Shown here: piece by piece, positions 1,546 through 55,449 of the stretch | Layout of the letters: the number at the start of each line of letters is the position of its first letter | Position numbering within the stretch: the first letter of the stretch is position 1 | The notes under the pieces: generated by a model | What the model was told of the DNA's origin: nothing | Databases searched by the model: none | The model's input: the letters and a program-made list of their open reading frames with translations, nothing else | Assembly: GCA_044866775.1 (NCBI GenBank) | Contig: JBIOUG010000095.1 | Location: forward strand, 4,415 to 68,414 | Length of the DNA: 64,000 nucleotides | Source of the DNA: Thermoanaerobaculia bacterium | GTDB taxonomy: Bacteria; Acidobacteriota; Thermoanaerobaculia; Multivoradales; UBA5704 | Direction: 5' to 3' | Made by a program: the position numbers and the translations under genes

Positions 1546-1553
<8 letters not shown>
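1..1553 (+). CDS. ctaD: cytochrome c oxidase subunit I (heme-copper oxidase catalytic subunit); N-terminus cut by window edge
   Basis: Translation of ORF 9..1553 is a polytopic heme-copper oxidase with [30 protein letters not shown] and [12 protein letters not shown] motifs. The frame is open to the window start. The 3' end overlaps the next gene by 8 nt. Confidence 0.95.
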
Positions 1554-2219
<666 letters not shown>

Positions 2220-2223
<4 letters not shown>

Positions 2224-2522: not shown

Positions 2523-2560
2523 GCGGGCGGCGGCGCAGCGTGCGCGGACACTGACGGGCG

Positions 2561-3148
2561 ATGCGCGCCAACGAGACTCTCCTCGACCTCTTCCTCGAGC
2601 TCCAGCTCCTCGACCGCATCCCGCGCAGCGGCTTCGTGCTGCGCGGCGTCGCCTCCCCGGAGAGCGTCACCGAGCACTCCTGGCACGTGCTGTTCCTGGT
2701 CTGGGCGCTGGGCGCCGAGGTCCCGGAGGTGGACCTCCCGCGCGCGGTCGAGATCGCCCTGGTCCACGACCTCGCCGAGCTGCGCATCGGCGACCTGCCA
2801 CGCACCGCCGCGCGCTACTTCCCGGAAGGGGCCAAGAGAGGCGCCGAGACCGCCGCCATCGACGAGATCCTGGCCCCCCTCCCGGAGCGCGCCCGCAGCC
2901 TCTACCGCGACTACCTCGAGGGCAAGAGCCCCGAGGCCCGCCTGGTGAAGGCCTGCGACAAGCTCCAGCTCATGCTCAAGGTGGCGGTCTACGAGCGCTG
3001 GGGCACCGGCGCGCTCGCGGAGTTCTGGGACAACCCGGACAACTTCCCCGACCCGGCGTTCCCGCCGGTGCGCGCGCTCTTCGAGGAGCTCCTCCGCCGG
3101 CGCCGGCAGGAGCCGGAACGGCTGGATCCGCTGACGGAAGATCGGTAG
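2561..3148 (+). CDS. HD-domain phosphohydrolase (YfbR-like 5'-deoxynucleotidase family)
   Basis: SVTEHSWHVLFLVWAL followed by ALVHDLAELRIGDLP gives the H...HD...D metal-binding pattern of HD hydrolases. Length (195 aa) fits the YfbR family. Confidence 0.8.
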   Translation: MRANETLLDLFLELQLLDRIPRSGFVLRGVASPESVTEHSWHVLFLVWALGAEVPEVDLPRAVEIALVHDLAELRIGDLPRTAARYFPEGAKRGAETAAIDEILAPLPERARSLYRDYLEGKSPEARLVKACDKLQLMLKVAVYERWGTGALAEFWDNPDNFPDPAFPPVRALFEELLRRRRQEPERLDPLTEDR

Positions 3149-3246
3149 AACGACTCGCTCGCGCCGGGCGCCGCCGGCCTTAGCGGCTCACGCGCACCGT
3201 CCGGCCGTTGAGCGGCTGCACCGCGCGGGCGCGGCCCGACTGCCAG

Positions 3247-3506
3247 TTAGGCGAGCGGCGCGATCTTGCCCGGGACCTCGTGGTGCCGAGCTCGCTGCCA
3301 GCACAAGCGGAGCTCGCCGCGATGGAGAGACGCCCACTCGATGACTAGGCCAGGGCGCGCCCGGGGAGATCGCCTTGCAAAAGCGCCAGGTTCTCGATTC
3401 CCACGACCGCCCGGTGCTCGGCGTACTCGACGTGGAAGTGCGGCGGCTCGTGCTCCCGGTAGAACATGCGGATCACGAGGCCGTAGAAGCGCGCGATCTC
3501 AGGCAC
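3247..3506 (-). pseudogene. DUF4160-family gene interrupted by a 1-nt frameshift
   Basis: A GTG at 3506 opens VPEIARFYGLVIRMFYREHEPPHFHVEYAEHRAVVG..LPGRALA and reaches a stop at 3345. The expected C-terminus (GLVIEWASLHRGELRLCWQRARHHEVPGKIAPLA, stop at 3247-3249) continues in the adjacent frame. Confidence 0.6.
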
Positions 3507-3783
3507 GCGCGTTTGCGGTCGCCAGGCCCGGCCAGAGGTCCTCGGGCCGCTGCCCGGTGATCTCGAGGTACAGGCTGTCGGGGCAGAGCTCGATGTCTTC
3601 GCTCCAGGCGATCGAGTCTCCCGGGCCGATGGTGACGGCCTCGAAGGTCCCCGGCTGCTCCCAGGCCGCGAAGACTCCCTTGCCGGCGAGGTCCGAGAGG
3701 TCAATCTCCCCCTCGACCCCGTCGTCATAGCGCAGCCAGATGCGGTAGTTGGGAAGCGGACGGACGGCGACAGGGCGTGGCAT
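3499..3783 (-). CDS. DUF2442 domain protein
   Basis: This is the last 94 codons of track ORF 3499..4437: MPRPVAVRPLPNYRIWLRYDDGVEGEIDLSDLAGKGVFAAWEQPGTFEAVTIGPGDSIAWSEDIELCPDSLY. An alternative ATG lies at 3807. It overlaps the DUF4160 start by 8 nt. Confidence 0.7.
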   Translation of the reverse strand: MPRPVAVRPLPNYRIWLRYDDGVEGEIDLSDLAGKGVFAAWEQPGTFEAVTIGPGDSIAWSEDIELCPDSLYLEITGQRPEDLWPGLATANARA

Positions 3784-3860
3784 GTGAGTCGCTCCAGCTA
3801 GGATCATAGCCTGCTCCGCGTCCAGCGAGCCTCCCCACCGGTGACTGAGAAGACGCTCAA

Positions 3861-4982
3861 TCACCCGACAGCCCTGAGGGTCGGCGGCGTCGTGTCGGCC
3901 ACCTCGGCCACGGCGAAGGCGCCGCCCGCGAAGCCGCAGCCGTCGGCGGCGGTGACGTCGAAGCGCACGGTGGCCGGGCCGCCGGCCAGGTTCGCGACCA
4001 GGGCGCTCCCCTCGATCTCGACCGTCCGGCCGTCCACCTGCTGGGCGACGAAGGCGAGGTTCGACAGGTCGGCGCGGCCGTCCACGATGGCGGCCGCGAC
4101 CTCGACGTCTCCGGCGGCGACCGAGCAGTCGTCGGTGACGGTCGCGGTGAAGGTCACCGCGAGCTGGTATGCCGCGTCGACCTCGCCGCCCTCTGCGCTC
4201 GCCGCGACCTCGGGCGCGCCGGCGACGACGAGGAAGTCGGCGTTCGAGATGTCGAAGAAGATGTTGTCCACGGCCGAGACGCGGATCCGCGCCGCGGCGG
4301 TCTCCTCGCAGGGCAGGACGACCGCGTGCGGCCCGTCGTTGGCCACGCCAGGCGCCAGCGGGTCGTAGGTGAACCCGCCGTCGCTGGAGAGCGCGATGTC
4401 GACCAGGTCCGCGATCGCGCCGCCGCCGACCTCCCACCTGACCTCCTCCGTGCAGCCCGCCCCGAGCTCGACGAAGCTGTTGGGGCTGGTGACGCGGAAG
4501 GGATCGCCCTCGACGGCGATCTCGACCGTGTCGTAATCGACGCCGCCGCCGTCCTGCCGCTGGTCGCGCGCGGTCAGGCGGAAGGTGAGGGGATCGCCGA
4601 CGCGGTCGACCTGCGGCAGCAGATCGCCCAGCGTCGTGGTGTTGCCGATGATGTCGCTGAGCTGCGGGAAGGTGCGCGCCGGGCTCGCCGCCGGCGGGAA
4701 CGAGCCGAACAGCGCGCCGCAGCCGGGATCAGTGCCGGGCAGGAACTGGCCGGGCGCCAGGTCGAACTGCTCCCAGGCGTAGGTCAGGGTGTCGGCCTCG
4801 GGATCGTCGGCCGAGCCGGTGAGGACGAAGGGCGTGTCGCGCGGGATCGTGGAGTCGGCCCCGGCGTCGACCTCGGGCGCGGAGTTGCCGGTCGCGCCGG
4901 CGACGGCGCAGGCGTTGCCGCCGCCGCTCGTGACGTAGGCGACGATCTGGTCGAAGCTGCGGGTGTGGAAGTAGGTGTCCAT
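3861..4982 (-). CDS. C-terminal region of a reprolysin-like (M12B-type) secreted zinc metalloprotease; catalytic domain absent, probably a gene remnant
   Basis: The in-frame sequence upstream of the first Met reads SGTCGAANNIQTTTMDTYFHTRSFDQI, which matches the end of the protease domain in this family. It is followed by PEVDAG..IPRDTPFVLTGSADDPEADTLTYAWEQFD and FRLTARDQRQDGGGVDYD modules. No HExxH motif is present. See finding. Confidence 0.5.
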   Translation of the reverse strand: MDTYFHTRSFDQIVAYVTSGGGNACAVAGATGNSAPEVDAGADSTIPRDTPFVLTGSADDPEADTLTYAWEQFDLAPGQFLPGTDPGCGALFGSFPPAASPARTFPQLSDIIGNTTTLGDLLPQVDRVGDPLTFRLTARDQRQDGGGVDYDTVEIAVEGDPFRVTSPNSFVELGAGCTEEVRWEVGGGAIADLVDIALSSDGGFTYDPLAPGVANDGPHAVVLPCEETAAARIRVSAVDNIFFDISNADFLVVAGAPEVAASAEGGEVDAAYQLAVTFTATVTDDCSVAAGDVEVAAAIVDGRADLSNLAFVAQQVDGRTVEIEGSALVANLAGGPATVRFDVTAADGCGFAGGAFAVAEVADTTPPTLRAVG

Positions 4983-5236
4983 CGTCGTGGTCTGGATGTT
5001 GTTGGCGGCACCGCAGGTGCCCGAGCGGCGACATCAGGGCGAGGAGCGGGAGCAGGTGCGAGAGCGAGGGCATGGGTTCCTCCTTGAGGGTGGCGGGTGC
5101 CGAGGCTGGCCTGGGTGGCCTCGGCCGACACTCAGGAGGTAAGTCGGAAGGCAGAGCCTCGACCCGCCAACCGGCACTCATGCTCGTGAGACGGGCGGGA
5201 GCGTCTTCGCTTACAGCGTGCGCAGCTTCAAGACTC

Positions 5237-7918
5237 TCAGGTAGGCGTTCCTGTCGCGGCGATGCGGGCGCGGAGGGCCGCTATGTGAGCGGCGCGCGGC
5301 TCGGCGGCCGGGTGGTCGATGGACCGCTCGTAGTCAACGCAAACTTGCATGAGGTCGGCGGCGCGGGCCAGGTCGCTTTCCTGCTCGTAGAGGAGGCCGA
5401 GGTTCCAGCAGGCGTTCGCCTCCCCCCGCCGGTCGCCGATCTGCCGCGCGACCACGAGGCGCTGCTCGTAATACTCGATCGCCTGCCGCGGCTCCCCAAG
5501 CGCCGCATAGGCGTTAGCCACGTTGCCCAGGGCGTATCCCTCACCCCGCCGATCGCCGATCTCCCGCGAGATCACGAGGCGCTCCTCGTAATATTCGATC
5601 GCCCGCCGCGGCTCCCTAAGCGCCGCGTAGGCAAGGCCCAGGTTTCCCAGGACCTGACCCTCTCCTCGGCGATCGCCGATCTCCCGCGCGATCACGAGGT
5701 GCTGCTCGTAGTACTCGATCGCCCGCCGCGGCTCCCCAAGCGCCGCGTAGGCAAGGCCCAGGTTGCTCAGGACCTGACCCTCTCCTCGGCGATCGCCGAT
5801 CTCCCGCGCGATCACGAGGTGCTCCTCGTAATATTCGATCGCCCGCCGCGGCTCCCCAAGCACCGCGTAGGCGTTGCCCAGATTGCCGAGGGCGTTCCCT
5901 TCGCCCCGTCGATCGCCGATCTCCCGCGCGATCACGAGGTGCTGCTCGTAGTACTCGATCGCACGCCGCGGCTCCCCAAGCTCCGCGTAGGCAAAGCCCA
6001 AGTTGCCGAGGGCGTTCCCCTCTCCCTGCCGGTCGCCGATCTTCCGCGCGATGACGAGCACCTGCTCGTGGTGCTCGATCGCACGCCGGGGCTCCCCAAG
6101 GTCCGCGTAAGCGTTGCCCAGGTTGCCGAGGTGTGCTCCTTCCGCAGCCCGGTTGTTCATGCGCCGCGCGGCCACGACCGCCGATTGCAGCCAGCCCACC
6201 CGTTGCCGCGGATGGAGGCGGAGGTGAAGACAGTAGGCCCCGACGTTGGGGTAGTCGCTGCACAGCGCGGCGGCCCGCTCGTCGTCCGCGGCGCGCGCCG
6301 CGGACCAGGCCTGGCCGGCCTCGACGTTCCTCCGCTCGGCGTCGAAGAGCGCCAGCCCGGCCAGCAAGGAAGCGCCACCCTTCAGGTACAGCACGTTCGC
6401 CGACCGCAGCACCCCTGCGTAGTGGGCCGCGTGGCGCCGCTCGCTCTGGTCGCGCTCGGCCTCGGCGAGTTGCGCGCCGGCGAAGTCGCGGGCCAGGTCG
6501 TGGAGGCGATAGCGGCCGTCCTCCCACTCGACGAGGCTGGCGTTGACCAGCTCGCCCAGAGTGTCGCGGGCGGGAGCAACCTCCACCTCCCATACCGCGG
6601 CGGCGCCGGCAGCGTCGAAGGTGCCGGGGAAGACGGCGAGTGTTCGCCAGTGGGCGCGGAGCTCTTCGGCAAGCAGTTCGTAGCTGGTGGCGAGCGCGCC
6701 CTCGATCAGGCCGAGGCGCTCCTTGGCGTCGGCGAGCTTGCGGGCGTACTCCTCGGGCGTGAGCCATGGCTTCTCGGCGAGCGCGCTGCCGGCGAGGCGG
6801 AGAGCGAAGGGGAGGCGGCCGCAGCGGCGGGCGATCTCGGCGGCCTGGTTCCCGATGCGGGGTGCGATGCGCAGCAGCAGCGTCTGGGCGTCGGCCCCGG
6901 GCAGTTCGTCGAGGTCCTTGGCGACAAGACCGGGCAGGGTGAAATGAAAGCGTGAAGTAACGAGGAGGAAGCACCCGGCAGGCGGAGTGAGCGGCTCCAC
7001 CTGCGCGCGGCCGGCGGCGTTGTCCATGAGCAGGAGGGCGCGCTGGCCGTGGAGGGAGGAACGGTAGAGCCCGTCCAGCTCGGCCGCGGAATCCGGTAGC
7101 TGCGCCGTCGGATGGTAAGCGCGGACAACGTGCGCCATCGCCAGGGCGGCGGTGAGCGGCTGCGGACTGACGCCCTTGAGATCGAGGTAAAGCTGCGCGT
7201 CGGTGTAGAGGGGCGTCAGCTCCTGCGCGAGCTTGAGCGCCAGGGCGGTCTTGCCGATGCCACCGGCGCCGCGGACAACCAAGGTCGCAGCGCCGCCAAG
7301 CTCCAAGGCCGCCCGGAGCTCCGCCAGCTCCATTTCCCGGCCGGTGAAGTCAGCAGGCGGGGACGGGATCTGATGGAGAGCTTGGGGCAGGGTCGGTATG
7401 GGCTGCTGTCCGACCTCGGGACTATGCTGTAAATCGCTTCCTGGCTCCCGCGGCTGGCGCCCCCCGTCCAACAGCCTGCGCACCTCCTTCGCGATCTTTG
7501 CCAGCTCGGCGTTTCGCTGTTCCCCGCGGAAGCTAGCGAGAGCGCGGCCGCCGCGTGGCCGCACCTGCATCGCAGCCAGCCAGGGGACCTCGTCCCACGC
7601 GCAGGCGCTGACGATCACTGGCAGCACGTGGATGCCGTCGGCGGCGCGACGCTCGAGGAGGCGGTGCACCTCCTCGCGCAAGATGAACCTGGACGTCAGT
7701 GAGTGGGCTGAAACGAGGAGGACGGCAACCTCCGCCCGTTCCATCGCGGCGCTGATCTCGCCAAGCCAGTCGCCGCCGCCGGTAGTCCTATCGTCGTCCC
7801 AGGTCTCGAGAAGCCCCTGCTGTTCCAGGACACCGAGATGGGAGACGAGCTGGTCCTTCCAGCGGCTGTCTTTGTGGCTGTAGCTGACGAAGACCGTCCG
7901 CGAGGGCACTCCCACCAT
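5237..7918 (-). CDS. TIR - NB-ARC (STAND P-loop NTPase) - TPR repeat protein (bacterial NLR-like, presumed antiphage or signalling)
   Basis: N-terminal TIR_2-like segment VFVSYSHKDSRWKDQLVSHL...AVLLVSAHSLTSRFILREEV. Walker A is VVRGAGGIGKTALALKLA and Walker B-like is RALLLMDNA. The C-terminus carries 6 near-identical plus 1 divergent 40-aa TPR units (GEPRRAIEYYEQHLVIAREIGDRRGEGNALGNLGNAYAAL). Start is placed at MVGVPSRTVFVSY (7918); an alternative ATG lies at 8032. Confidence 0.85.
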   Translation of the reverse strand: MVGVPSRTVFVSYSHKDSRWKDQLVSHLGVLEQQGLLETWDDDRTTGGGDWLGEISAAMERAEVAVLLVSAHSLTSRFILREEVHRLLERRAADGIHVLPVIVSACAWDEVPWLAAMQVRPRGGRALASFRGEQRNAELAKIAKEVRRLLDGGRQPREPGSDLQHSPEVGQQPIPTLPQALHQIPSPPADFTGREMELAELRAALELGGAATLVVRGAGGIGKTALALKLAQELTPLYTDAQLYLDLKGVSPQPLTAALAMAHVVRAYHPTAQLPDSAAELDGLYRSSLHGQRALLLMDNAAGRAQVEPLTPPAGCFLLVTSRFHFTLPGLVAKDLDELPGADAQTLLLRIAPRIGNQAAEIARRCGRLPFALRLAGSALAEKPWLTPEEYARKLADAKERLGLIEGALATSYELLAEELRAHWRTLAVFPGTFDAAGAAAVWEVEVAPARDTLGELVNASLVEWEDGRYRLHDLARDFAGAQLAEAERDQSERRHAAHYAGVLRSANVLYLKGGASLLAGLALFDAERRNVEAGQAWSAARAADDERAAALCSDYPNVGAYCLHLRLHPRQRVGWLQSAVVAARRMNNRAAEGAHLGNLGNAYADLGEPRRAIEHHEQVLVIARKIGDRQGEGNALGNLGFAYAELGEPRRAIEYYEQHLVIAREIGDRRGEGNALGNLGNAYAVLGEPRRAIEYYEEHLVIAREIGDRRGEGQVLSNLGLAYAALGEPRRAIEYYEQHLVIAREIGDRRGEGQVLGNLGLAYAALREPRRAIEYYEERLVISREIGDRRGEGYALGNVANAYAALGEPRQAIEYYEQRLVVARQIGDRRGEANACWNLGLLYEQESDLARAADLMQVCVDYERSIDHPAAEPRAAHIAALRARIAATGTPT
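5395..6135. repeat. six tandem 120-bp repeats (coding the TPR units of the STAND protein)
   Basis: The sequence lines 5401-6130 are in exact 120-bp register, for example the recurring cgccgatctcccgcgcgatcacgaggtgctgctcgtagtactcgatcgcccgccgcggctccccaagcgccgcgtaggc. Confidence 0.9.
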
Positions 7919-8040
7919 TTTAGCGGCAGTGAGATCGTGGGCGGCAGGCGCCGCGCTCCCCCACCCGGATCCTTCGCTGCGCGCTCCGGGACCGCGTCGG
8001 ACGTCCGCCTCCGCGCCAGGGCGCGCGATCACGATGGCGC

Positions 8041-8481
8041 GCGCTCGACCACCGTCACGAGCGCTCCATCCCCGGAATGGGAGCTCAGTTAGGCGGCCGG
8101 ACGCTCCGTCGCCGTTCCGGTGGCCCGATTACCATTCTCGGCGCTCGAATACTTGTTCCGAGCGCGCAATTACCCCTCCGGGCGCGCAAGTTCCGACTTC
8201 GGCGCTCAAGTTCCGTTCCGGGCACTCGATCACCATTTCAGGCGCTCGAGTTCCGATCTGGGCGCGAAACTATCGTTCTCGGCACTCAAGCACCAATCCG
8301 GGCGCTCAAGTTCCAATTTCGGCGCTCGAGTTCCGTTCCGGGCGCTCGATAACCGCTTTCGGCGCGCGATCATCATTCAGGACACGCAAATCACCAGTCC
8401 GGGCACTCGATCACCGCCTCGGCCCGCCAAGGTCCGTCTCCGGCGCTTGGGTTCGCTGATCGGCGCTCCACCGCCGTCTGT
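8041..8481. repeat. tandem array of about 22 units of 20 bp (consensus about GGCGCTCRAGTTCCGNTYYS, with a GGCACTCGATCACC variant)
   Basis: 18 units lie in perfect 20-bp phase from 8041 to 8400, for example ggcgctcaagttccgttccg, ggcactcgatcaccatttca, ggcgctcgagttccgatctg. A 1-nt slip and 4 more units follow. The array is intergenic, between divergent genes starting at 7918 (-) and 8539 (+). Confidence 0.9.
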
Positions 8482-8498
8482 GGTCGGTCCGCACTGCA

Positions 8499-8538
8499 TT
8501 TTGACCACGGCACGGTCAAATTGCTAGGATCTTTGACC
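8499..8538. promoter_or_regulatory. operator-like TTTGACC inverted repeat plus a third half-site abutting the ATPase start codon
   Basis: ttttgaccacggcacggtcaaa (7-bp arms, 7-nt spacer) lies at 8499-8520. A further tttgacc at 8532-8538 sits immediately before the ATG at 8539. Confidence 0.3.
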
Positions 8539-9792
8539 ATGCTCGCCCGGATGGTCGGTGCGCGTCTCCCTTCCCCGACCGGGCCTCGGCGGCTCGTGGT
8601 GCTGACGGGGGCGCGTCAGGTGGGGAAGACGACGCTGGCTCGCGCGCTCTACGGCAAGAAGCTCCGCTACCTGAACCTCGACTCGCCGGGAGAGCGCGAG
8701 CGACTCCGGGGAGTGCCCGCCGAGGGATGGGCGCGGGTGGTCGGGCCGGCGGTGCTCGACGAGGTGCAAAAAGCTCCCGGGCTCCTCGACAAGATCAAGT
8801 GGGCGTACGACGAAGGGGAGCTGCGGTTCTCGGTGCTGCTCGGCTCCTCGCGCATCCTGCTGCTCGAGCAGGTGCGGGAGACGCTCGCGGGGCGGGTGTT
8901 CCTCTACGAGCTGTGGCCGCTCACCGTTGGCGAGCTCGCCGCTCACTTTGGAGGGACCGCTCCGGCCGAGCCGCTGATCGCCACGCTGGCGGCCGATCCC
9001 GCCGGCGCCGCCGCGCGGCTGCGCCCGCTGCTCGACGGCGTCGTCGGCCCGCAGGCGGGCGTCGCCCAGGCGGCGGTCCAGCACAGCCTGGAGTGGGGCG
9101 GTCTCCCCGCCCTCCTCCAGTACCCTGTCGAGGAGCGGCGGCAGTGGCTCGACGGGTACCACGCGACCTATCTCGAACGGGACCTGGCCGATCTCGCCCA
9201 GCTCCGCGACCTCGAGGCATTCACTCTCTGTCATCGCCTGGCGTCGCTGCGCGCGGGAAGGATCCTCTCCTATTCCGAGCTCGCCCGCGATGCCGCCCTC
9301 CCCATCACCACGGTGCGGCGCTACCTGCGGTACCTCGAGCTCTCCTACCAGATCTTCCACTTGCCGGCCTGGGCGGGCAATCCCAGCCTGCGCCTGATCA
9401 AGGCCCCGAAGCTCATCTGGTTCGACAGCGGCGTGCAGCGCGCCCTCTCGGGCGAGGTCGGCGGACTGCGCGGCGAGCAGTACGAGAGCACCCTGATCGC
9501 GCAGATCCTGATGACCCTGTGGAATCTCGGCGTGCGTGCCGAGGCGTCCTACCTGCGCACGGCCGGCGGTCTCGAAGTCGACCTCGTGATCGAGCGGCAG
9601 GAGGGGCTCCTGGCCTTCGAGATCAAGGCGCGCTCGCGCGTCGAGACGCGCGACGCGGGCCGGATCGAGAGGGCGCGGCGGGCCCTGGGAGAGCGCTACC
9701 GCGGCGGGATCGTCGTCTATCGCGGCCAGCAGGTCGTGCAGCTCACGGAGACGGTCTTCGCGGTCCCCGACTGGCTGCTGCTGGGGTACTGA
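8539..9792 (+). CDS. AAA+ ATPase with DUF4143 C-terminal domain (AAA_14/DUF4143 family)
   Basis: Walker A is LVVLTGARQVGKTTLARALY. The family-typical C-terminal half includes LDGYHATYLERDL and SELARDAALPITTVRRYLRYLELSY. The first ATG is at 8539; the track ORF starts at a TTG at 8521. Confidence 0.8.
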   Translation: MLARMVGARLPSPTGPRRLVVLTGARQVGKTTLARALYGKKLRYLNLDSPGERERLRGVPAEGWARVVGPAVLDEVQKAPGLLDKIKWAYDEGELRFSVLLGSSRILLLEQVRETLAGRVFLYELWPLTVGELAAHFGGTAPAEPLIATLAADPAGAAARLRPLLDGVVGPQAGVAQAAVQHSLEWGGLPALLQYPVEERRQWLDGYHATYLERDLADLAQLRDLEAFTLCHRLASLRAGRILSYSELARDAALPITTVRRYLRYLELSYQIFHLPAWAGNPSLRLIKAPKLIWFDSGVQRALSGEVGGLRGEQYESTLIAQILMTLWNLGVRAEASYLRTAGGLEVDLVIERQEGLLAFEIKARSRVETRDAGRIERARRALGERYRGGIVVYRGQQVVQLTETVFAVPDWLLLGY

Positions 9793-12431
9793 GCTCTATC
9801 CTTCGCCTCGTACCAGCTCCGCCCCCACCCGGCGTCGACCACGAGAGGCACCGCCAGCGCCGCCACGCCCTCCATCTCCTGCTTGACCTTCGCCGCCACC
9901 GTCTCGACCTCGGCCTCCGGCACCTCGAAGACCAGCTCGTCGTGGACGGTCAGGAGCAGGCGCGCCTCGGGGTGCTCGTCTCGCAACCGGCAATCGACCG
10001 CGATCATCGCCTTCTTCAGGAGGTCCGCCGCGGTGCCCTGGATCCTGGCGTTGATCGCCATGCGGCGGGCGTTCTCGCGCAGCGCCCGGTTCTTGCTCTG
10101 GATCTCGGGGAGCCAGCGGACGCGGCCGTAGAGGGTCTCGACGCGGCCTTCCTTCTCGGCGCTCGCCAGCGTCTCGTCGAGGTAGCGCCGCACGCCCGGG
10201 TACTGCGCCAGGTAGTCGCGGATGAAGCGGTCGGCTTCCTTCTGCGGGATGCCGAGGTTCTGCGCCAGGCCGAAGGCGCTCATGCCGTAGAGGATGCCGA
10301 AGTTGATGGTCTTGGCGGCGCGGCGCTGCTCGGGGGTGACCAGGGCCGCCGAGATGCCGAAGACGGTGGCGGCGGTGGCGCGGTGGATGTCGGTGCCGTC
10401 GGCGAAGGCCTTGACCAGCGCCTCCTCCTCGGCGATGTGGGCGAGGATGCGCAGCTCGATCTGGCTGTAGTCCGCCACCAGGAGCTGGCTGCCCGGACCG
10501 GCGATGAAGGCCTTCCTGATGCGCTGCCCGAGCTCGGTGCGGATCGGGATGTTCTGCAGGTTCGGGTTGGCCGACGACAGCCGGCCGGTCGCCGCCACCG
10601 CCTGGTAGTAGCGGGTGTGGAGGCGGCGGTCGCCGTCGACCAGGCCGGGGAAGGCGTCGATGTAGGTGCTCTTGAGCTTCGACAGCTCGCGGTAGCGCAG
10701 CAGCACCTCCGGCAGCGGATAGCCGCGCGCCGCCAGCTCCTCGAGCGTCTCGGCGCCGGTCGAGTAGCTGCGGGTCTTCTGCGTGCGCTTGAGCACCGGG
10801 TAGCCGAGCTTCTCGAACAGGATGACGCCGAGCTGCTGCGGCGAGTTGAGGTTGAAGCGCTCGCCGGCGATGTCGTAGGCCTGCCCCTCGAGCGCCAGCA
10901 GCTCCTTGCCGAGCTCGCTCGCCATGTCGGCGAGGAGGTCGATGTCGAGCAGGATGCCGCGCTCCTCCATCCCCAGGAGCACCGGCAGCAGCGGCGCCTC
11001 GATGTCGCGGTAGATGCGCTCGAGCGCCGGGCTCGCTGCCAGCTCCTCGCGCATCGGCGGCACGAGCTGCCGCGCGAGGTCGATGCGCTCGCCGGCGTAG
11101 GCGGCGAGGCGCGAGTCGCCGAGCGGCGGCTCCTGTGCCTTGTCCCAGCCGGCGTCCTTGGCGGAGAGCGGCTTGCGATTGAGCCGCTCGAGCGCCAGCT
11201 CCTCGAGCGCATGGCCGTGCACCGAGGGCTTCAGGAGATAGGAGGCCAGCATGGCGTCGAAGAGCGGCGCCCGGCAGAAGCGGCCGGCGGCGCAGAGGCG
11301 CAGGACCTCCTTCAGGTTGTGGCCGACGAGCGTGGTCGCCGGGTCCTCCGCCCAGCGCGCCAGGGTCTCGACGGCGGCCTCGCGCATCCCGGGCCGCCGC
11401 AGGTCGGCCATCCAGACCGCGCCTTCGGCGCTCCCGGCCGCCAGCCCGAGCGGGTGCTCCTCCCCGAGCACGGCGATGTAGAGGTCGCCCGCGAGCGCCG
11501 CCGCCAGCCGCCGCCACTCCTCGGGAGACTCGACCTCGGTCGCCGGCGCCGCGGCCTCCCCGGCCACCGCCGCCGTCGGCGCCAGCTCCTCGGCGAGCGA
11601 GAAGAACTCGAGGTCGGTGAAGAGGCGGCGCAGCGCCACCGGGTCCGGGGCCTCGCGGCGGAGCTTCTCGGGCTCGAAGGGGATCGGCAGGTCACAGTGC
11701 AGGGTCGTCAACTGCTTCGAGAGCTTGAGCTGCTCGGCGTGCGCGCGCAGAGTCTCCCGCTGCTTCGGCGGCGCCTCCTCGAGCCGCGACAGCAGCTCCT
11801 CGATCGAGCCGAACTGCTGGATCAGCTTCTTGGCGCCGACCCGTCCGATCCCCGGAACGCCGGGGATGTTGTCGATGGTGTCGCCGATCAAGGCCAGGAA
11901 GTCCGGAACCTGCGCGGGGAGGACCCCATAGTCCTCCTCGACGTCCGGCGGGCCGTAGACCTTCTCCTTGATCAGGTGGAGGAACGACACTCCGGGCCGC
12001 ACGAGCTGCATCAGGTCCTTGTCGGCGGAGACGAGCACGACGTCGTACCCCGCCTCGGCTCCCTTGCAGGCGAGCGTGCCGAGCACGTCGTCGGCTTCGT
12101 AGCGCGGCTCTTCGACGATCGGGATCCGATAGGCGTCGATGATCTGGCGGATCCAGGGGAGCTGGTTGATGAGGTCGGCCGGCATCGGCGCGCGGTTCGC
12201 CTTGTACTGCTCGTAGAGATCGCTGCGGGCGCTCGGCGCGCCGACGTCGAGCGCCATGGCCATGAACTCGGGCTGCTGCTCGCGCAGGAGCTTGCGCAGG
12301 GTCTGCACGACGATGTAGACGGCGTTCGTCGGCTGCCCGCGGGAGGTCGAGAGCCGCGTCGGGGCGAAGAACGAGCGGTAGATGAGGTAGTAGCCGTCGA
12401 TCAGGAACAGCCGCGGGCGGGGCTCGGTCAT
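9717..12431 (-). CDS. polA: DNA polymerase I
   Basis: The 5'-nuclease N-terminus is RLFLIDGYYLIYRSFFA. Polymerase motif A is LVADYSQIELRILAH, motif B is RRAAKTINFGILYGMSAFGL and motif C is LLLTVHDELVFEV. Length is 904 aa. Confidence 0.95.
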   Translation of the reverse strand: MTEPRPRLFLIDGYYLIYRSFFAPTRLSTSRGQPTNAVYIVVQTLRKLLREQQPEFMAMALDVGAPSARSDLYEQYKANRAPMPADLINQLPWIRQIIDAYRIPIVEEPRYEADDVLGTLACKGAEAGYDVVLVSADKDLMQLVRPGVSFLHLIKEKVYGPPDVEEDYGVLPAQVPDFLALIGDTIDNIPGVPGIGRVGAKKLIQQFGSIEELLSRLEEAPPKQRETLRAHAEQLKLSKQLTTLHCDLPIPFEPEKLRREAPDPVALRRLFTDLEFFSLAEELAPTAAVAGEAAAPATEVESPEEWRRLAAALAGDLYIAVLGEEHPLGLAAGSAEGAVWMADLRRPGMREAAVETLARWAEDPATTLVGHNLKEVLRLCAAGRFCRAPLFDAMLASYLLKPSVHGHALEELALERLNRKPLSAKDAGWDKAQEPPLGDSRLAAYAGERIDLARQLVPPMREELAASPALERIYRDIEAPLLPVLLGMEERGILLDIDLLADMASELGKELLALEGQAYDIAGERFNLNSPQQLGVILFEKLGYPVLKRTQKTRSYSTGAETLEELAARGYPLPEVLLRYRELSKLKSTYIDAFPGLVDGDRRLHTRYYQAVAATGRLSSANPNLQNIPIRTELGQRIRKAFIAGPGSQLLVADYSQIELRILAHIAEEEALVKAFADGTDIHRATAATVFGISAALVTPEQRRAAKTINFGILYGMSAFGLAQNLGIPQKEADRFIRDYLAQYPGVRRYLDETLASAEKEGRVETLYGRVRWLPEIQSKNRALRENARRMAINARIQGTAADLLKKAMIAVDCRLRDEHPEARLLLTVHDELVFEVPEAEVETVAAKVKQEMEGVAALAVPLVVDAGWGRSWYEAKDRAQYPSSSQSGTAKTVSVSCTTCWPR

Positions 12432-12593
12432 AGGGCGGTCATTGTGTCAGGTCCGGGCGAGGGCATGGCACGGGTCTAGCATTTTGCCAGCGCGTCTGAA
12501 CAGGCACGCCTGGAGAGGTTCGCACAGGCGGGGCGGCAGGGACGAGGCCGGGGCCCGCACGGGCGGGCCGCCGTTGCGAAAGGAGGCAGTCAC

Positions 12594-12863
12594 GTGGAAG
12601 CGGGCATGGGACTCATCTCGTGGATCGTGTTCGGCCTGATTGCGGGTCTGATCGCCAAGATGATCATGCCGGGCAGGGACCCGGGCGGCTGCATCATCAC
12701 GGTCATCATCGGGGTCGTGGGGGCGCTGCTCGGCGGCTTCATCGCCACGGCACTGGGCTTCGGGGGGATCAGCGGGTTCGACTGGCGGAGCCTGCTGATC
12801 GCGATCCTCGGATCGCTCGTGCTGCTGTTCATCTGGAGGGCCATCTCCGGCAGGAGGGCGTAG
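12594..12863 (+). CDS. GlsB/YeaQ/YmgE family (transglycosylase-associated) stress membrane protein
   Basis: GLISWIVFGLIAGLIAKMIMPGRDPGGCIITVIIGVVGALLGGF is the family signature. An AGGAGG lies 7 nt upstream of the GTG at 12594; an alternative ATG lies at 12606. Confidence 0.85.
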   Translation: MEAGMGLISWIVFGLIAGLIAKMIMPGRDPGGCIITVIIGVVGALLGGFIATALGFGGISGFDWRSLLIAILGSLVLLFIWRAISGRRA

Positions 12864-12888
12864 GCCGGGCGCCCGCGGGTTTCGTCGC

Positions 12889-13398
12889 TCAGGCGCGGCG
12901 GGCTTGGGCGACGAGGTGCGCGGCCTCGGGGAGGATGAGCTCCTCCATGGCGAGGGCCACGGCCTTGGGCGAGCCGGGGAGGGCGAACAGGGCGCGGCCG
13001 GCGATGACGCCGGCGGCGGCGCGGGAGAGCATGGCGGCGGCGCCGACCTGCCGGTAGGAGAGCATCCGGAAGAGCTCGCCGAAGCCCTCGACCGGCCGCT
13101 CGAGGAGCGGAGCGACGGCTTCGAGCGTCAGGTCGCGGGGCGAGAGGCCGGTGCCGCCGGTCGTCACCACCACGTCCACCTCCGGCAGAGCCAGCAGCTC
13201 GCGCAGGGCGGCGCGGATCTCCGGCACCGCGTCGCGCACGATCCGCGCCTCGATCACCCGGTGCCCCGCCCGCTCCGCGGCCTCGCGGATCGCCCGCCCG
13301 CCGGCATCGTCCTCCGGCGTCCTGCTGTCGCTCACCGTCAGAGCGGCGAACCCGAGGCTCCGCGGCGCCTGGGCGCGGTGCTGCGCGGGGACGTCCAT
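12889..13398 (-). CDS. moaB: molybdenum cofactor biosynthesis protein B (MoaB/MogA fold)
   Basis: LTVSDSRTPEDDAGG...VVVTTGGTGLSPRDLT...ALPGSPKAV. Length is 169 aa. Confidence 0.8.
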   Translation of the reverse strand: MDVPAQHRAQAPRSLGFAALTVSDSRTPEDDAGGRAIREAAERAGHRVIEARIVRDAVPEIRAALRELLALPEVDVVVTTGGTGLSPRDLTLEAVAPLLERPVEGFGELFRMLSYRQVGAAAMLSRAAAGVIAGRALFALPGSPKAVALAMEELILPEAAHLVAQARRA

Positions 13399-13445
13399 CG
13401 GCGGGGCAGGCTAGCACGCGGCCGGGCAGCTAGAATCGCCGCCTC

Positions 13446-16400
13446 ATGCGCTTCCGGCCCGTGCTCGCCACTGCAGCTCTGCTTCTCGCCGCCCTTCCTT
13501 GCCTGAATTCTCTTTCTGCGAATGGTCAACCGCCCGCCTTGCCGCCGCGGGCGCTCGAGCTGCGGACGCTGGGGATCGCGCAGCTCGAGAACGAGCAGCC
13601 GGCGGAGGCGGCGGCGACCTTCGCGGAGGTGGCGCGGCTGGTGCCGGGGGATCCGCTGGGCGACGCCAACCTGGCGGTCGCGCTGCTGCGCCAGCAGAAG
13701 AGCGACGAGGCGCTGGCGGCGATCGGGCGGGCGCTCGGGAAGACGCCGGGGCGGCCCGACCTGCTGGCGATCCAGGCGGAGGCGCTGCAGTGGGCCGGCG
13801 AGCCCGAGAAGGCGCTCGCGGCGCTCGAGCAGGCGATGGCCGCGGCGCCCGAGGATCTCGAGATCCTGTTCGCGGCGCAGCGCCTCGCCGTTACGCTCGA
13901 AGGCGAGGCGGCGGAGCGGGTGGGGGCGGCGGCGCTCGAGCGGCTGGCGCGGCTGCGGCCGGAGAACGTGGTGGTCCTGACGCAGCTCGGCAGCCGCGCG
14001 GTCCAGGCCGGCGACCGCACGGCGGCGACCGGCGCCTATCTGCGCCTGAAGGAGCTGCTCTGGCAGGCGCCGCAGGCGGAGGCGCTCCTGGGCCAGCTCC
14101 TGACGGCGCTCGAGGCGGGCGACCCGGCGGCGGTGCGGGTGCCGGCGCTGCGGCTCGAGAACGTCCTCAAGGTGACGCCGATGTACCAGCAGGGGCTGCG
14201 CGAGCTGACCGCCGGGATCCAGGGGGTGCCGGTCACGCGCTTCGCCGGCGAGCCGCCGCCGGCGGCGTTCGGCGAGCCGGTGCCGGTCGAGCTGCGGGGC
14301 ACGGCAATCGACGGCACGGCGACCGCCGGTTCGGGCCTCGCGGTGGGAGATTTCGACAACGACCAGAAGCCGGACCTGGCGCGGCTCGTCGCAGGTGAGG
14401 CGCCGGGCCTGGAAGTGCGTCTCGCAGCCGCCGGGTGGCAGGCGCACGGCTCGCCCGCCCACGAGGTCCGTGGGTTCACCGGCCTCGCCGCTCTCGACCT
14501 CGACAACGATGGGAAGCTCGATCTCCTGGGCTACGGCCCGGAGCGGACCGCGATGTTTCTGGGTAAGGGGGACGGGGCATTTGCCGCCGCACCCGAGCTT
14601 CTCGCCGCCGCGCGCGGCGCAACCGCCGCCACGGCCCTCGATTACGACATCGAAGGCGACCTGGACCTCGCGCTTGCCGGGGGCCCGGCAGGCGCGCCGG
14701 CGCCCGCCCAGCTCCTGCGGAATACCCTCGAAGGACCAGCGACGCCGCTGACGGCCGTCGGCGAGAAGACCTTCCCTTCCCTTCCCTGGAACGCAGTCCA
14801 CCAGGCCCTCGCCACCGATCTCGATCGCGACGGCGACCTCGACCTCCTCCTCGCCCACGCCGGCGGCCTCGCCTGGCTCGACAACCTGCGCCAGGGGCGC
14901 TTCGCCGACCGCACCGCCGCCGCCGGCCTCGCCGCCGCGGGCAGCCCCGGGGAGGTCCTGACCGTCGCCAGCGCCGACCTCGACCAGGACGGCCTCCCCG
15001 ACCTGATCGCGGCGCCGGCCGCCGGCGGGCTCCGCTTCCTCCGCAACGAGGGCGGGAAGTTCACGGCCTGGGACCTCGCGTCGGGCCTGGCGGGCGCCCC
15101 GCCGCCGGTCGTCCGCGCCCTCGCCACGCCCGACCTCGACAACGACGGCCGCGTCGACCTCGCCGTCGCCGGCGACTCCGGCGTGGCCGCGCTCTCGCGC
15201 CGCGGATCGGGCTTTGAGGCGATCCCCTTGACCGGCGGCCCGCCCCGCGCCACCGCCCTCGAGGCGGCCGACCTCGACGGCGACGGCGACCTCGACCTCC
15301 TCGCCGCCGGCCCGTCCGGCCTCCACCGCCTCGACAACCAGGGCGGCAACACGAACCACTGGCTGGCGGTGCGGCTCCAGGGGCTGGCCAAGGGGAACAG
15401 CAAGAACAACCTCTTCGGCGTCGGCTCGGTCGTCGAGGTGCGCGCCGGAGCGGCGTACCAGCTCCGCGAGGCGATGGGGCAGGTCGTGCACTTCGGCCTC
15501 GGGAGCCTCGCCAAGGCCGACCTGCTGCGCGTCGTCTGGCCGAACGGCGTGCCGCAGAACCGGCTCCAGCCGCGGCTCGACCAGCGCATCGTCGAGGAGC
15601 AGCTCTTGAAGGGGAGCTGCCCGTTCCTCTACGCCTGGGACGGGACCCGCATGGCGTTCGTCACCGATCTCCTCTGGGGGGCGCCGATCGGCCTGCCGGT
15701 CGCCGAGGGGGTGTGGGCCGGCGCCGATCCCGACGAGCTGGTGCGGGTGGACGGCGCGCGCGCGGACGGCGGCAGCTACCGTCTGGCGGTGACCGAGGAG
15801 CTGTGGGAAGCGGCCTTCATCGACCGCCTGCGGCTCTGGGTCGTCGACGCCCCGGCCGAGGTCGAGGTGGCGAGCAGCCTGAAGATCCTCCCCGGGCGGG
15901 TCCTGCCGGAAGCGGTCGTGGGCAGCCGCGGCCTGCGGCCGGTCGCGGCGGCCTGGGACGGCGCGGACCGGGACGTCACGGCGCGGGTCGCGGCGCGCGA
16001 CGAGGTCTACGCCTCGGGGTACGAAGAGGGGCGCTACCAGGGAGTCGCGGCGCGCCCGTGGAGCTTCACCTTCGATCTCGGCGCGGCGCCCGGCGGTCCC
16101 GTGCGCCTCCACCTCGACGGCTGGATCTTTCCCGCCGACGCGAGCTTGAACCTCGCCGTCGCCCAGCGCGCCGTTCCCGGCCTCGTGCCGCCGCGCCTCG
16201 AGGTCGAGACCGCCGGCGGCTGGCGCGCGCTGCTGCCGGAGATGGGCTTCCCGGCCGGCAAGACGAAGACCATGGTCGTCGACACGCCGCCGCTGCCGCC
16301 CGGGGCGCGGCGCCTGCGCATCACGACCTCGCTCTGGCTCGCCTGGGACCGCGTCGCCTGGACGACCTCTCCGGCCGATACCGCGCCGCGCATCGTGGCC

Positions 16401-16871
16401 CGCCTCGCGCCGGCGCGCGCCGAGCTGCGCTTCCGCGGCTTCTCGCGCCTGGTGCGCAGCGCGCCCAACGCGCCGCACCGCTTCCTCTATGAGGAGACGT
16501 CGACCGCCTCCCCCTGGCTCCCCTTCCCCGGGCGCTATACGCGCTTCGGCGACGTGCGCGAGCTGCTGGGCGAGGCCGACGACCGCGCCGTCGTCATGGC
16601 CCCCGGCGACGAGATCGCCCTCGCCTTCGACGCCGGCGCTCTGTCCCCGCCCCCCGCCGGCTTCCGCCGCACCGTCTTCCTCGAGAGCTCCGGCTGGGAC
16701 AAGGACGCCGACCGCAACACCTATGCGGCGGCCGCGGTCGAGCCGCTCCCCTTCCGCGCCATGAGCGGCTACCCGTACGGGCCGGGCGAGCGCTTCCCCG
16801 ACACGCCGCTCCACCGCGAGTACCTGGCGACCTGGCTCACCCGGGAGGTGCCGCCGGCAGGCTTCGACTGA
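13446..16871 (+). CDS. secreted TPR + FG-GAP/VCBS repeat + ASPIC/UnbV domain protein (CRTAC1 family)
   Basis: Has a signal peptide, N-terminal TPR-like helices and repeated Ca-loop motifs (DLDNDGKLDLL, DLDRDGDLDLL, DLDQDGLPDLI, DLDNDGRVDLAV, DLDGDGDLDLL). These are followed by NHWLAVRLQG...FGVGSVVEV...VVWPNG. Confidence 0.8.
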   Translation: MRFRPVLATAALLLAALPCLNSLSANGQPPALPPRALELRTLGIAQLENEQPAEAAATFAEVARLVPGDPLGDANLAVALLRQQKSDEALAAIGRALGKTPGRPDLLAIQAEALQWAGEPEKALAALEQAMAAAPEDLEILFAAQRLAVTLEGEAAERVGAAALERLARLRPENVVVLTQLGSRAVQAGDRTAATGAYLRLKELLWQAPQAEALLGQLLTALEAGDPAAVRVPALRLENVLKVTPMYQQGLRELTAGIQGVPVTRFAGEPPPAAFGEPVPVELRGTAIDGTATAGSGLAVGDFDNDQKPDLARLVAGEAPGLEVRLAAAGWQAHGSPAHEVRGFTGLAALDLDNDGKLDLLGYGPERTAMFLGKGDGAFAAAPELLAAARGATAATALDYDIEGDLDLALAGGPAGAPAPAQLLRNTLEGPATPLTAVGEKTFPSLPWNAVHQALATDLDRDGDLDLLLAHAGGLAWLDNLRQGRFADRTAAAGLAAAGSPGEVLTVASADLDQDGLPDLIAAPAAGGLRFLRNEGGKFTAWDLASGLAGAPPPVVRALATPDLDNDGRVDLAVAGDSGVAALSRRGSGFEAIPLTGGPPRATALEAADLDGDGDLDLLAAGPSGLHRLDNQGGNTNHWLAVRLQGLAKGNSKNNLFGVGSVVEVRAGAAYQLREAMGQVVHFGLGSLAKADLLRVVWPNGVPQNRLQPRLDQRIVEEQLLKGSCPFLYAWDGTRMAFVTDLLWGAPIGLPVAEGVWAGADPDELVRVDGARADGGSYRLAVTEELWEAAFIDRLRLWVVDAPAEVEVASSLKILPGRVLPEAVVGSRGLRPVAAAWDGADRDVTARVAARDEVYASGYEEGRYQGVAARPWSFTFDLGAAPGGPVRLHLDGWIFPADASLNLAVAQRAVPGLVPPRLEVETAGGWRALLPEMGFPAGKTKTMVVDTPPLPPGARRLRITTSLWLAWDRVAWTTSPADTAPRIVARLAPARAELRFRGFSRLVRSAPNAPHRFLYEETSTASPWLPFPGRYTRFGDVRELLGEADDRAVVMAPGDEIALAFDAGALSPPPAGFRRTVFLESSGWDKDADRNTYAAAAVEPLPFRAMSGYPYGPGERFPDTPLHREYLATWLTREVPPAGFD

Positions 16872-16926
16872 GCGCCTGAAACCTGCCCGTCCCATTCCCG
16901 TAGAAGGGGGGCACCGAAGAGTTGTC

Positions 16927-54663: not shown

Positions 54664-55016
54664 CTCCTTTCGTTGCTCAAGACGAGCGAGGAAGCGCTCC
54701 GGATAGAGCTCCGGGCGCTGGGGATACATCTCCGAGCGCTGGGGATACATCCCCGGTCGTTGGTGATGTATCTCCGGTTGTCGGTGATGTATCTCCCGTC
54801 ATTGGTGATGTATCTCCGGCCGTTGGAGATAGATCCCCAGGCGCTGGGGATGAATCTCCGGGCGCTGGGGATACATCCCCCAGGCGCTGGGGATAGATCC
54901 CCAGGCGTCGGGGATAGATCCCCGGGCGTGGGGGACACATCTCCGGCGGCTGCTACGACAACTTCCAGGGCCCGGATCGTCACCCCGCCCTCTGGCGCGG
55001 TTCCGCCGTCCGTCAC
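54660..55016 (-). CDS. possible heptad-repeat ORF spanning the 21-bp array (coding status unresolved)
   Basis: 118-codon ORF bounded by a GTGA overlap with the upstream gene (55013-55016) and an ATGA overlap with the downstream gene (54660-54663). It reads GDVSPTP GDLSPTP GDLSPAP then RRFIPSA RRYITND... Third-position GC is only moderate, and other frames are also open. Confidence 0.3.
   Translation of the reverse strand: MTDGGTAPEGGVTIRALEVVVAAAGDVSPTPGDLSPTPGDLSPAPGGCIPSARRFIPSAWGSISNGRRYITNDGRYITDNRRYITNDRGCIPSARRCIPSARSSIRSASSLVLSNERR
54694..54946. repeat. tandem array of about 13 units of 21 bp with a palindromic core (GGGGAT-AC-ATCCCC)
   Basis: Examples are gcgctggggatacatctccga (54715), gcgctggggatacatccccgg (54736), tcgttggtgatgtatctccgg (54757) and gcgctggggatagatccccag (54884). 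One unit has 22 bp (54862-54883). Confidence 0.9.
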
Positions 55017-55321
55017 GCCCCGAACTCCAGCGCCTCGGCCACCAGGAAGTCCCGCTCGGTGACGCCGTCGACCGCCGCCGTCGAGAGGTTGACGACGACG
55101 GTGCCCGGCGTCAGGGTCATCGTCGCTTCGCCCTCGTGGTAGTCGATGACGGAGGCGAGGGCGCTCGCGAAGGAGCTGCCGACGTAAAGGCTGGGGACGC
55201 TCCAGGTGCGGCGGATGGCCCTGCCGTCGCGCCGGAGCTCCCAGGTGGGGAGCCGCTCGAGGAGCGCTTGGATGCGCTCGGCCTTGAGCTGCTCGGTGAT
55301 GGGTCTGCGGCTCTCGTTCAT
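55013..55321 (-). CDS. pterin-4a-carbinolamine dehydratase (PCD/DCoH)-fold protein, catalytic His motif not conserved
   Basis: MNESRRPITEQLKAERIQALLERLPTWELRRDGRAIRRTW.....FASALASVIDYHEGEATMTLTPGTVVVNLSTAAVDGVTERDFLVAEAL parallels the PCD pattern, but YHEGEA replaces the HHP motif. A GGAGG lies 9 nt upstream of the ATG at 55321. Confidence 0.5.
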   Translation of the reverse strand: MNESRRPITEQLKAERIQALLERLPTWELRRDGRAIRRTWSVPSLYVGSSFASALASVIDYHEGEATMTLTPGTVVVNLSTAAVDGVTERDFLVAEALEFGA

Positions 55322-55385
55322 CTCAGGTTCCTCCAGGACTTCAGGGGCGCCGGGAGGCTCCAGTGCCTCCGGCGGGACAGCGGTC

Positions 55386-55447
55386 TTGCTACTCCAACCA
55401 AGCCCCCGCCGCTTCGCGGCCCACCCTGACCGGCTTCGCCGGTCAGC
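55386..55447. repeat. 62-bp element, copy 1 (inverted relative to copy 2)
   Basis: ttgctactccaaccaagcccccgccgcttcgcggcccaccctgaccggcttcgccggtcagc. It contains two hairpins, gccgc-ttc-gcggc and ctgaccggc-ttc-gccggtcag. It is intergenic, just 3' of the 55450..56940 gene. Confidence 0.9.
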
Positions 55448-55449
55448 GG

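Follow-up and report, generated by a model that had tools for sequence, protein, structure and literature searches.

Why should almost half a kilobase of short tandem repeats separate two divergent defence-type genes? The question is raised by a 64,000-nucleotide stretch of DNA from a Thermoanaerobaculia bacterium (Acidobacteriota; GenBank assembly GCA_044866775.1, contig JBIOUG010000095.1, positions 4,415 to 68,414 of the forward strand), which was analysed as a whole and is called the window below. In this window, an array of 20-bp units lies between a gene for a TIR-STAND protein and a gene for an ATPase with a DUF4143 domain. An earlier note, made from the sequence alone, had drawn attention to the array and listed several roles that it might play. 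We examined how the array is built, whether it occurs elsewhere or in relatives, where it lies with respect to an insertion and whether it carries coding or RNA signals. The results lead us to propose, with moderate confidence, that it is an old, decaying, locus-specific non-coding minisatellite, which acts as a passive spacer between two self-contained divergent promoters.

Structure of the tandem array

The array and its parts are located as follows.

8020..8481, plus strand: whole tandem array, about 23 head-to-tail 20-bp units, two of them of 21 bp, in a single orientation
8161..8400, plus strand: best-kept core, 12 units in one phase, with three unit types alternating as 60-bp blocks and a duplication of a 120-bp block
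8020..8160, plus strand: decayed left flank, seven units, the last of 21 nt, with little beyond GCGCTC kept in phase
8402..8481, plus strand: decayed right flank, four units, after the second 1-nt slip

Both the existence of the array and its 20-bp unit were confirmed at the place given by the earlier note, using Tandem Repeats Finder and self-match values compared with shuffled sequences. Tandem Repeats Finder reported a period of 20 at 8155-8347 (9.6 copies, 65% matches), together with an overlapping period-40 array and a period of 60 at 8181-8367 (3.1 copies, score 193), and a repeat search found families with 20-bp spacing across 8016 to 8436. At lag 20, self-match reaches 0.54 for 8020-8481 and 0.59 for the core, compared with a maximum over all lags of 0.37 (whole array) and 0.41 (core) in 1000 shuffles. 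The 20-bp array is far above chance, and nowhere else in the 64-kb window does the lag-20 self-match come near its value.

When the sequence is printed in phase, the units start at 8020, 8040, 8060, 8080, 8100, 8120, 8140, 8161, 8181 and every 20 bp to 8381, followed by 8402, 8422, 8442 and 8462. Two units, those at 8140 and 8381, have 21 nt, which gives two 1-nt phase slips. The earlier count of 22 units from 8041 was right about the tandem array and one short in number, as a further degenerate unit at the left brings it to 23. The 18 units described as being in perfect 20-bp phase before a single slip are really 6 + 12 units, with two 1-nt slips.

Self-match in the core is higher at lags of 80-120 bp (0.66-0.70, with 0.70 at lag 120) than at 20 bp. 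Because these longer lags match better and three unit types alternate in the core, the units are organized at a higher order of 60/120 bp, and the array is uniform in the centre and decayed at both ends. Neighbouring units are approximately 65-70% identical (65-69% matches in Tandem Repeats Finder), and the longest perfect direct repeats within the array are 14-15 bp long and 80-120 bp apart. The GC content of the core is 59-61%, compared with about 70% around it, and the minimum for 200-bp windows (0.59) falls inside the array.

The unit consensus consists of a 9-bp head, GGCRCKCRA, followed by a variable part with CC at positions 13-14 and T at position 17. Among 14 core units, positions 3, 5 and 9 are invariant, and positions 1, 2, 7 and 14 show one change each. 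Overall, positions 1-3, 5, 7, 9 and 13-14 are conserved at 79-100%, while positions 8, 10-12, 15-16 and 18-20 vary freely. The units fall into two tail families, GTTCC... and (A/T)(C/T)ACC..., and all of them have the same orientation. A shared head with two types of tail had been noticed before and is borne out in this form.

Coding, RNA and CRISPR potential

Three plus-strand open reading frames (ORFs) cross the array in the ORF list (7929..8459, 8077..8352 and 8120..8527). They are open because the unit has no stop codons, and we agree with the earlier note that they are artefacts. Every reading frame is broken, since 20 is not divisible by 3 and the phase slips twice by 1 nt. The translation has no real homologue. 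An exhaustive HMMER search with the translation of 8120-8524 against 1.84 billion protein representatives returned a single match, P0241, itself the translation of an unrelated array. The array is non-coding. P0241 is a database 'protein' of 1147 amino acids, in which the motif of a non-coding tandem DNA array appears in shifted frames as EARARWLGE and KRHERGGSAN, and it demonstrates that long arrays do get annotated as proteins.

No match to Rfam was found in the array at E values up to 10, and there is no tRNA in the 64-kb window. The predicted RNA folds of the array are no better than those of shuffled sequences (z = -0.9 for the plus strand and -1.7 for the minus strand). A repetitive peptide or structured RNA as the product of the array would be compatible with all three plus-strand frames being open across it and with a 60-bp super-period equal to 20 codons. 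However, with a unit that is not a multiple of 3, two slips that break any frame, a translation whose sole homologue is another translated array, and neither unusual folding nor an Rfam match, this explanation is scarcely credible.

In CRISPR (clustered regularly interspaced short palindromic repeats) loci, conserved repeats of 24-48 bp alternate with unique spacers of about the same length. Here, the units abut without spacers, and all three 20-bp sub-units of the 60-bp super-period share one head, in contrast to a repeat-spacer layout. No match to a CRISPR direct repeat was detected in the array, and no cas gene was found among the flanking genes and the few neighbours that were scanned. Thus, the array is not a CRISPR, as had been stated earlier.

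Distribution of the array

The array is missing from the relatives of both flanking genes. On the DUF4143 side, six orthologous proteins led to seven loci (L051-L055, L063 and L064); L051 and L052, which is a second contig, share their upstream sequence. At five distinct loci (L051, L053, L054, L055 and L064; 79-88% protein identity), the promoter/operator of the gene is kept and no array is present, with called upstream gaps of about 60-220 bp. BLAST homology to these loci begins at window positions 8481-8514 and stops at the stop codon. The array is also absent from L063, an orthologue with a diverged 5' end. On the other side, five distinct loci of TIR-STAND homologues (L057-L060 and L062), with upstream gaps of approximately 36-72 bp, contain no array, and no TIR-STAND homologue exceeds 73% identity. 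Upstream of the homologues of either flanking gene, the array motif shows no enrichment.

Two simple associations were considered and rejected. A link to the DUF4143 gene is contradicted by six orthologue loci without an array, and a link to the TIR-STAND family by its absence from the five homologue loci inspected. A locus-specific regulatory role, which the earlier note had left open, is likewise not supported, since the DUF4143 orthologues keep a compact promoter/operator without an array and the TIR-STAND homologues also lack one.

The only other copy of the array was found on a 4147-bp Logan contig (L001, from SRR30692710), which is identical to the window and may come from the same population. 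A search for three heads at intervals of 20 bp (GGCRCTCRA-N11, three times) in 185,579 representative genomes gave 49 loci. These are short, mostly near-perfect variable number tandem repeats (VNTRs) of 10 or 20 bp from many phyla, with unrelated tails and contexts. A tblastn search with both flanking proteins at the 49 loci revealed only one weak DUF4143-like match (L036) and no TIR-STAND homologue beside any of them. A tail-specific two-unit scan of JGI metagenomes produced one chance match and no array.

No second copy of the array was found in the 64-kb window or at the related loci. With none in the 185,579 genomes, the JGI metagenomes or the 1.84 billion protein representatives either, the possibility that it is a common dispersed repeat can be set aside. 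Membership in a dispersed family, such as repetitive extragenic palindromic (REP) sequences, mycobacterial interspersed repetitive units (MIRUs) or elements resembling miniature inverted-repeat transposable elements (MITEs), was rejected since no other copy was found in the window, the related loci or the public collections. As far as the searched collections show, the array is an orphan.

Two groups of 20-bp arrays in other bacteria deserve a separate description. Perfect 20-bp arrays of 5-11 copies, all from one unit family (GGCGCTCAAGGAAATATATC and GGCGCTCAATCAAAAATATC), are present in Paraliobacillus salinarum scaffold 2 (L006, L031 and L035) and in Paraliobacillus sp. PM-2 (L009). In these Firmicutes with 35% GC, the arrays occur at several separate loci, each preceded by a short GATCATC...GATGATC inverted repeat, and look like a dispersed array family of their own. 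Two loci of the Abditibacteriota bacterium IAD-21 (L004 and L022; AP024152.1) have identical flanks around a perfect 20-bp array of GGCGCTCGATGCGTGTACCC, present in 9 and 6 copies, respectively. One element has been duplicated here, and its repeat tract varies in length.

Position at the edge of an inserted segment

Comparison of the window with L051, a syntenic locus in the metagenome-assembled genome GCA_036277075.1, places the array within the following feature.

3102..8495, no strand: 5.4-kb segment absent from L051, containing a DUF2442 ORF, a 373-aa ORF, the TIR-STAND gene and, at its right edge, the array

The two loci align in three blocks: 1-3101 (COX operon and HD gene), 8496-9792 (DUF4143 gene) and 19693-22435 (DUF1232 and UbiA). 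Thus, the HD and DUF4143 genes, which are 64 bp apart in L051, have 5.4 kb between them in the window. Another block absent from both L051 and L053 extends between the DUF4143 and DUF1232 genes (9793-19692), and contains polA (9717..12431, minus strand) and a gene for a large FG-GAP/TPR protein (13446..16871, plus strand). Therefore, this lineage has rearrangement points on either side of the DUF4143 gene. The array marks the junction where a defence-gene segment was inserted beside the resident gene, which makes it useful for mapping variable hot spots in Acidobacteriota.

Its location exactly at the right edge of the insertion could mean that the array is the relic of a mobile element or replicon that arrived with the 5.4-kb segment, in the form of origin iterons, a partition centromere or transposon-like terminal sites. 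In L051, a different insertion has a second degenerate array, of 21-bp units, at its right edge, and a 20-bp unit is within the range of iterons. However, neither rep, par, integrase and transposase genes nor a tRNA were found in or beside the segment. Its left edge has no matching repeat, and a search for a target-site or att duplication at the two ends revealed only one shared 12-mer, which is expected by chance. The array also lacks an AT-rich unwinding region (minimum GC 59%), and its 23 units far exceed typical iteron sets. We therefore regard this origin as quite improbable.

The specific suggestion of iterons or a centromere fares no better and is disfavoured. Direct repeats of about 17-22 bp in one orientation are present, as in iterons, but the adjacent rep gene and the AT-rich unwinding element of such origins are missing. 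Similarly, the parA/parM and parB/parR genes that adjoin partition centromeres are absent from the flanking genes and the inserted segment.

Flanking genes and their promoters

The two flanking genes and their predicted control elements are listed below.

5237..7918, minus strand: TIR-STAND gene (TIR_2, AAA_16/NB-ARC-type NTPase and TPR domains, from a domain search)
7917..7922, minus strand: probable -10 element TAAAAT of the TIR-STAND gene, predicted from homologues
8481..8538, plus strand: predicted DUF4143 promoter/operator, outside the array, from a promoter scan, inverted repeats and conservation in L051, L053, L054, L055 and L064
8539..9792, plus strand: AAA_14 + DUF4143 ATPase gene, from a domain search; PADLOC candidate PDC-S01 (E=2.9e-79)

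The TIR domain of the TIR-STAND gene matches the ThsB-like TIR in PADLOC. In PDC-S01, an ATPase is joined to a PD-(D/E)xK domain; this candidate is widespread and has not yet been validated experimentally (PMC12988326). Our literature search on comparable arrays and on DUF4143 function yielded only this PDC-S01 context.

The promoter scan of 7700-8800 found a single promoter-like site, the sigma-70-like sequence TTGACC-18-TAGGAT (8501-8530) in front of the DUF4143 gene. Its predicted -35 element, TTGACC (8501-8506), lies within the inverted repeat TTTGACC-N7-GGTCAAA (8500-8520), and an upstream half-site, TGGTCGGTCC at 8481-8490, is the third half-site of the operator. Because the predicted -10 element (TAGGAT, 8525-8530) ends 8 nt before the ATG, the DUF4143 mRNA would be leaderless. 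This module of about 45-60 bp is kept in the orthologues L051, L053, L054, L055 and L064 and accompanies the gene into different genomic contexts. Across these loci (L051 at 4940-5000), the operator layout is TGGTCGATCC, approximately N10, TTGACCA-N5-TGGTCA overlapping the -35 element, TAGGAT, and a start codon 7-8 nt after the -10 element. Such an arrangement suggests that the DUF4143 gene is leaderless and probably autoregulated.

For the TIR-STAND gene, the homologues L058 (about 5980-6003) and L059 (about 1305-1328) share the sequence GCCGCTA(A/C)AAT 6-7 nt before a GTG start. Its counterpart in the window is GCCGCTAAAAT, at the same place (7907-7925, minus strand). The true start of this gene is probably the GTG at 7909 rather than the ATG at 7918, again with a leaderless mRNA, and the start at GTG 8032 proposed by one gene caller lies inside the array.

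The array ends 20 bp upstream of the predicted DUF4143 -35 element and begins approximately 100 bp from the putative -10 element of the TIR-STAND gene, which would leave both core promoters outside it. The earlier suggestion that the array sets promoter spacing is not supported by this arrangement, nor by a unit identity of about 65-70%, which makes a poor slippage substrate.

The same observations bear on the idea that the array is a contingency (phase-variation) locus, where the TIR-STAND or the DUF4143 gene would be switched in its expression as units are gained or lost. A tandem intergenic tract adjoining immune-type genes, with perfect direct repeats of 14-15 bp at distances of 80-120 bp, is the kind of sequence in which such switching could be expected. 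Contingency loci have near-identical, fast-slipping units, and their tract is located in a reading frame or between the -35 and -10 elements. In contrast, neighbouring units of this array differ so much that slippage should be rare, and the array falls outside the -35/-10 spacers of both predicted promoters. Furthermore, L001 is identical to the window over its 4147 bp, although it may represent the same population. Contingency-type switching, raised in the earlier note, is thus disfavoured, and we consider it very unlikely.

An origin of the array units from the operator half-site was also rejected. The half-site TGGTCGATCC and the sequence TCGATCACC within the C-type unit share just TCGATC plus CC, a resemblance that is too weak and was noticed post hoc.

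The TIR-STAND gene carries a tandem repeat of its own: six 120-bp repeats at 5411-6131 (86% matches) encode TPR units of 40 residues. Their number varies among homologues, with approximately 4.7-6 copies in L057-L062.

Other arrays in the clade

A second non-coding array is located in the window at 54694-54946, where a 21-bp unit (about GGCGCTGGGGATACATCTCCG) is repeated 12 times with 79% matches. The genes on its two sides encode pterin-4a-carbinolamine dehydratase (55013..55453, minus strand) and a protein without assigned function (54217..about 54660, minus strand), and the unit junctions of this array form the near-palindrome GGGGAT-N2-ATCCCC.

Non-coding arrays are also present at the related loci. 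L051 contains about 14 degenerate 21-bp units (CTGGATCTACTCGCTCCGGTC) at 8255-8560, at the right edge of an insertion relative to L053. This insertion brings toxin-antitoxin-like genes between the DUF4143 and DUF1232 genes, and the position of its array mirrors that of the 20-bp array in the window. L054 has 13 units of 41 bp at 7300-7831, and in L057 and L060 the STAND gene is followed downstream by two or three units of 21 bp. Neither the units of these arrays nor the genes beside them are related to one another. Since the neighbouring genes are unrelated, degenerate intergenic arrays look like a habit of these genomes and not like a device of this locus.

Origin and likely role of the array

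The array consists of head-to-tail non-coding units, with a length inside the range of about 10-100 bp, in an intergenic region, and therefore has the properties of an intergenic minisatellite. The statement that no feature class could be named for it was too strong, as it fits this class and other such arrays occur in the clade.

According to the model that we favour, a 20-bp seed in the junction DNA at the edge of the acquired segment would have been amplified by slipped-strand mispairing or unequal recombination. Amplification may have started with single 20-bp units and continued later with 60-bp and then 120-bp blocks. Such stepwise block amplification would leave the middle of the array most uniform and both its ends most decayed. 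The array now fills nearly all of the gap of about 560 bp between the back-to-back TIR-STAND and PDC-S01 modules, and its likely effect would be passive, as spacer DNA that holds two divergent promoters apart. The array is probably not required for the expression of either flanking gene. If it is only a minisatellite, it matters mainly for annotation, as a source of three false ORFs and of a TIR-STAND gene overextended to 8032.

Several observations weigh against a passive minisatellite. An array of 460 bp has persisted in a compact genome until its units were only about 65% identical. The changes among its units are also unevenly placed: when 14 core units were joined in an average-linkage tree and Fitch parsimony changes were counted per position, the head (positions 1-9) took 12 of 55 inferred changes compared with 24.8 expected (P ~3e-4), with the head/tail split chosen after the data had been seen and a marginal overall over-dispersion among positions (P ~0.07). 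The constancy of the head and the three invariant positions (3, 5 and 9) are suggestive, since purely neutral decay does not predict them, although a GC-rich head may simply mutate less in a genome with 70% GC. The periods of the non-coding arrays in the clade (20, 21, 21 and 41 bp) are close to two or four helical turns, which hints at a structural constraint in what is a small sample of loci chosen near variable genes. Finally, the array locus is represented by a single independent sequence.

Part of this evidence would be accommodated if the units were direct-repeat sites for a DNA-binding protein. Such a protein would read the 9-bp head, and perhaps the CC at positions 13-14, and load cooperatively once per 20 bp (about two turns). 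The resulting filament between the divergent promoters might silence, insulate or co-regulate the two defence genes, or the array might titrate the protein. The position-specific conservation in the 14 core units, the lower number of changes in the head on the unit tree and the uniform orientation all point in this direction, and a 9-bp element with an 11-bp variable spacer resembles direct-repeat operators. In addition, the 10-mer TCCGGGCGCT has four exact copies in the 64 kb, all four of them within the 20-bp array and the array at 54694-54946. The conservation of the head and this shared 10-mer are suggestive of a recognition element, but not decisive.

Other results argue against binding sites. 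Neither the 5.4-kb segment nor the DNA beside it yielded a candidate binding protein, the motif shows no enrichment upstream of homologues of the flanking genes, and relatives carry the same gene families behind compact promoters without an array. A dyad-symmetric operator was rejected as a candidate, as the best centre (unit positions 7/8) averages just 3.4 of 7 pairs, and this weak symmetry also counts against recognition of the units. The test of head against tail was post hoc, and a lower mutation rate of the GC-rich head would have the same appearance. The earlier remark that every unit lies on the same DNA face is true as arithmetic, but a wedge model (with Trifonov parameters) predicts no curvature: the end-to-end ratio of the core is 0.96, which is ordinary for the window, compared with 0.38 for a phased A-tract control. 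On balance, we regard a binding array as possible but doubtful. If the head is a real binding site, two immune genes would be separated here by a direct-repeat operator array of unusual length, and the locus would provide a handle on the regulation or silencing of acquired defence genes in a poorly studied phylum.

A broader version of this idea, which we consider unlikely, extends to the other arrays described above. The degenerate intergenic arrays of Thermoanaerobaculia might form a class, with periods of about two or four helical turns, each with its own unit and a conserved short core and several of them located at the edges of inserted DNA. An oligomerising DNA-binding protein, for instance a nucleoid or xenogeneic-silencing factor, would use these arrays as platforms for loading. 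At the present locus, coating of the gap by this protein would silence the recently gained TIR-STAND module and the PDC-S01 gene that was already in place, or would insulate one from the other.

Comparison with known systems

Several known systems resemble the array in part. Plasmid iterons and incompatibility arrays (P1 incA, F incB/incC, RK2) are also composed of direct repeats of 17-22 bp in one orientation with a spacing near two helical turns, and iterons are able to titrate a protein. In contrast, the array has far more units, is chromosomal, lies between defence-type genes and has no rep gene, AT-rich unwinding element or DnaA-box context. Repeat-array centromeres (R1 parC, F sopC, pSM19035 parS) share with it many tandem repeats in an intergenic position upstream of an operon, and their repeats are bound cooperatively. 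They differ from it in the presence of parA/parM or parB/parR genes and in their unrelated unit lengths and sequences.

Regulators of the LytTR family, such as AgrA and ComE, recognize direct-repeat operators with a 9-bp element and a spacer of roughly 12 bp. These operators are similar to the array in having a conserved 9-bp element and a variable spacer, a repeat distance of approximately 20-21 bp and a single orientation. However, they contain two or three repeats beside the core promoter, whereas the array has 23 units with no regulator found for them, and the predicted core promoters are outside it. A binding array would therefore resemble iteron or LytTR sites in layout and is not a member of those families, because their defining partner genes are absent.

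Parallels to the minisatellite that we propose are found among MIRUs and VNTR loci, which also consist of head-to-tail non-coding units of tens of bp, occupy intergenic positions, arise by slippage or unequal recombination, have a lineage-specific unit and depend on no dedicated gene. MIRUs are 40-100 bp long, dispersed at many loci, often overlapping the stop and start codons of operons, near-identical and polymorphic, whereas the array is a strongly degenerate orphan of 23 units. Eukaryote-style satellite DNA differs from this prokaryotic, single-locus array of 0.46 kb but shows the same organization, with monomers grouped in higher-order blocks (of 60 and 120 bp here) and a centre that is more homogeneous than the edges.

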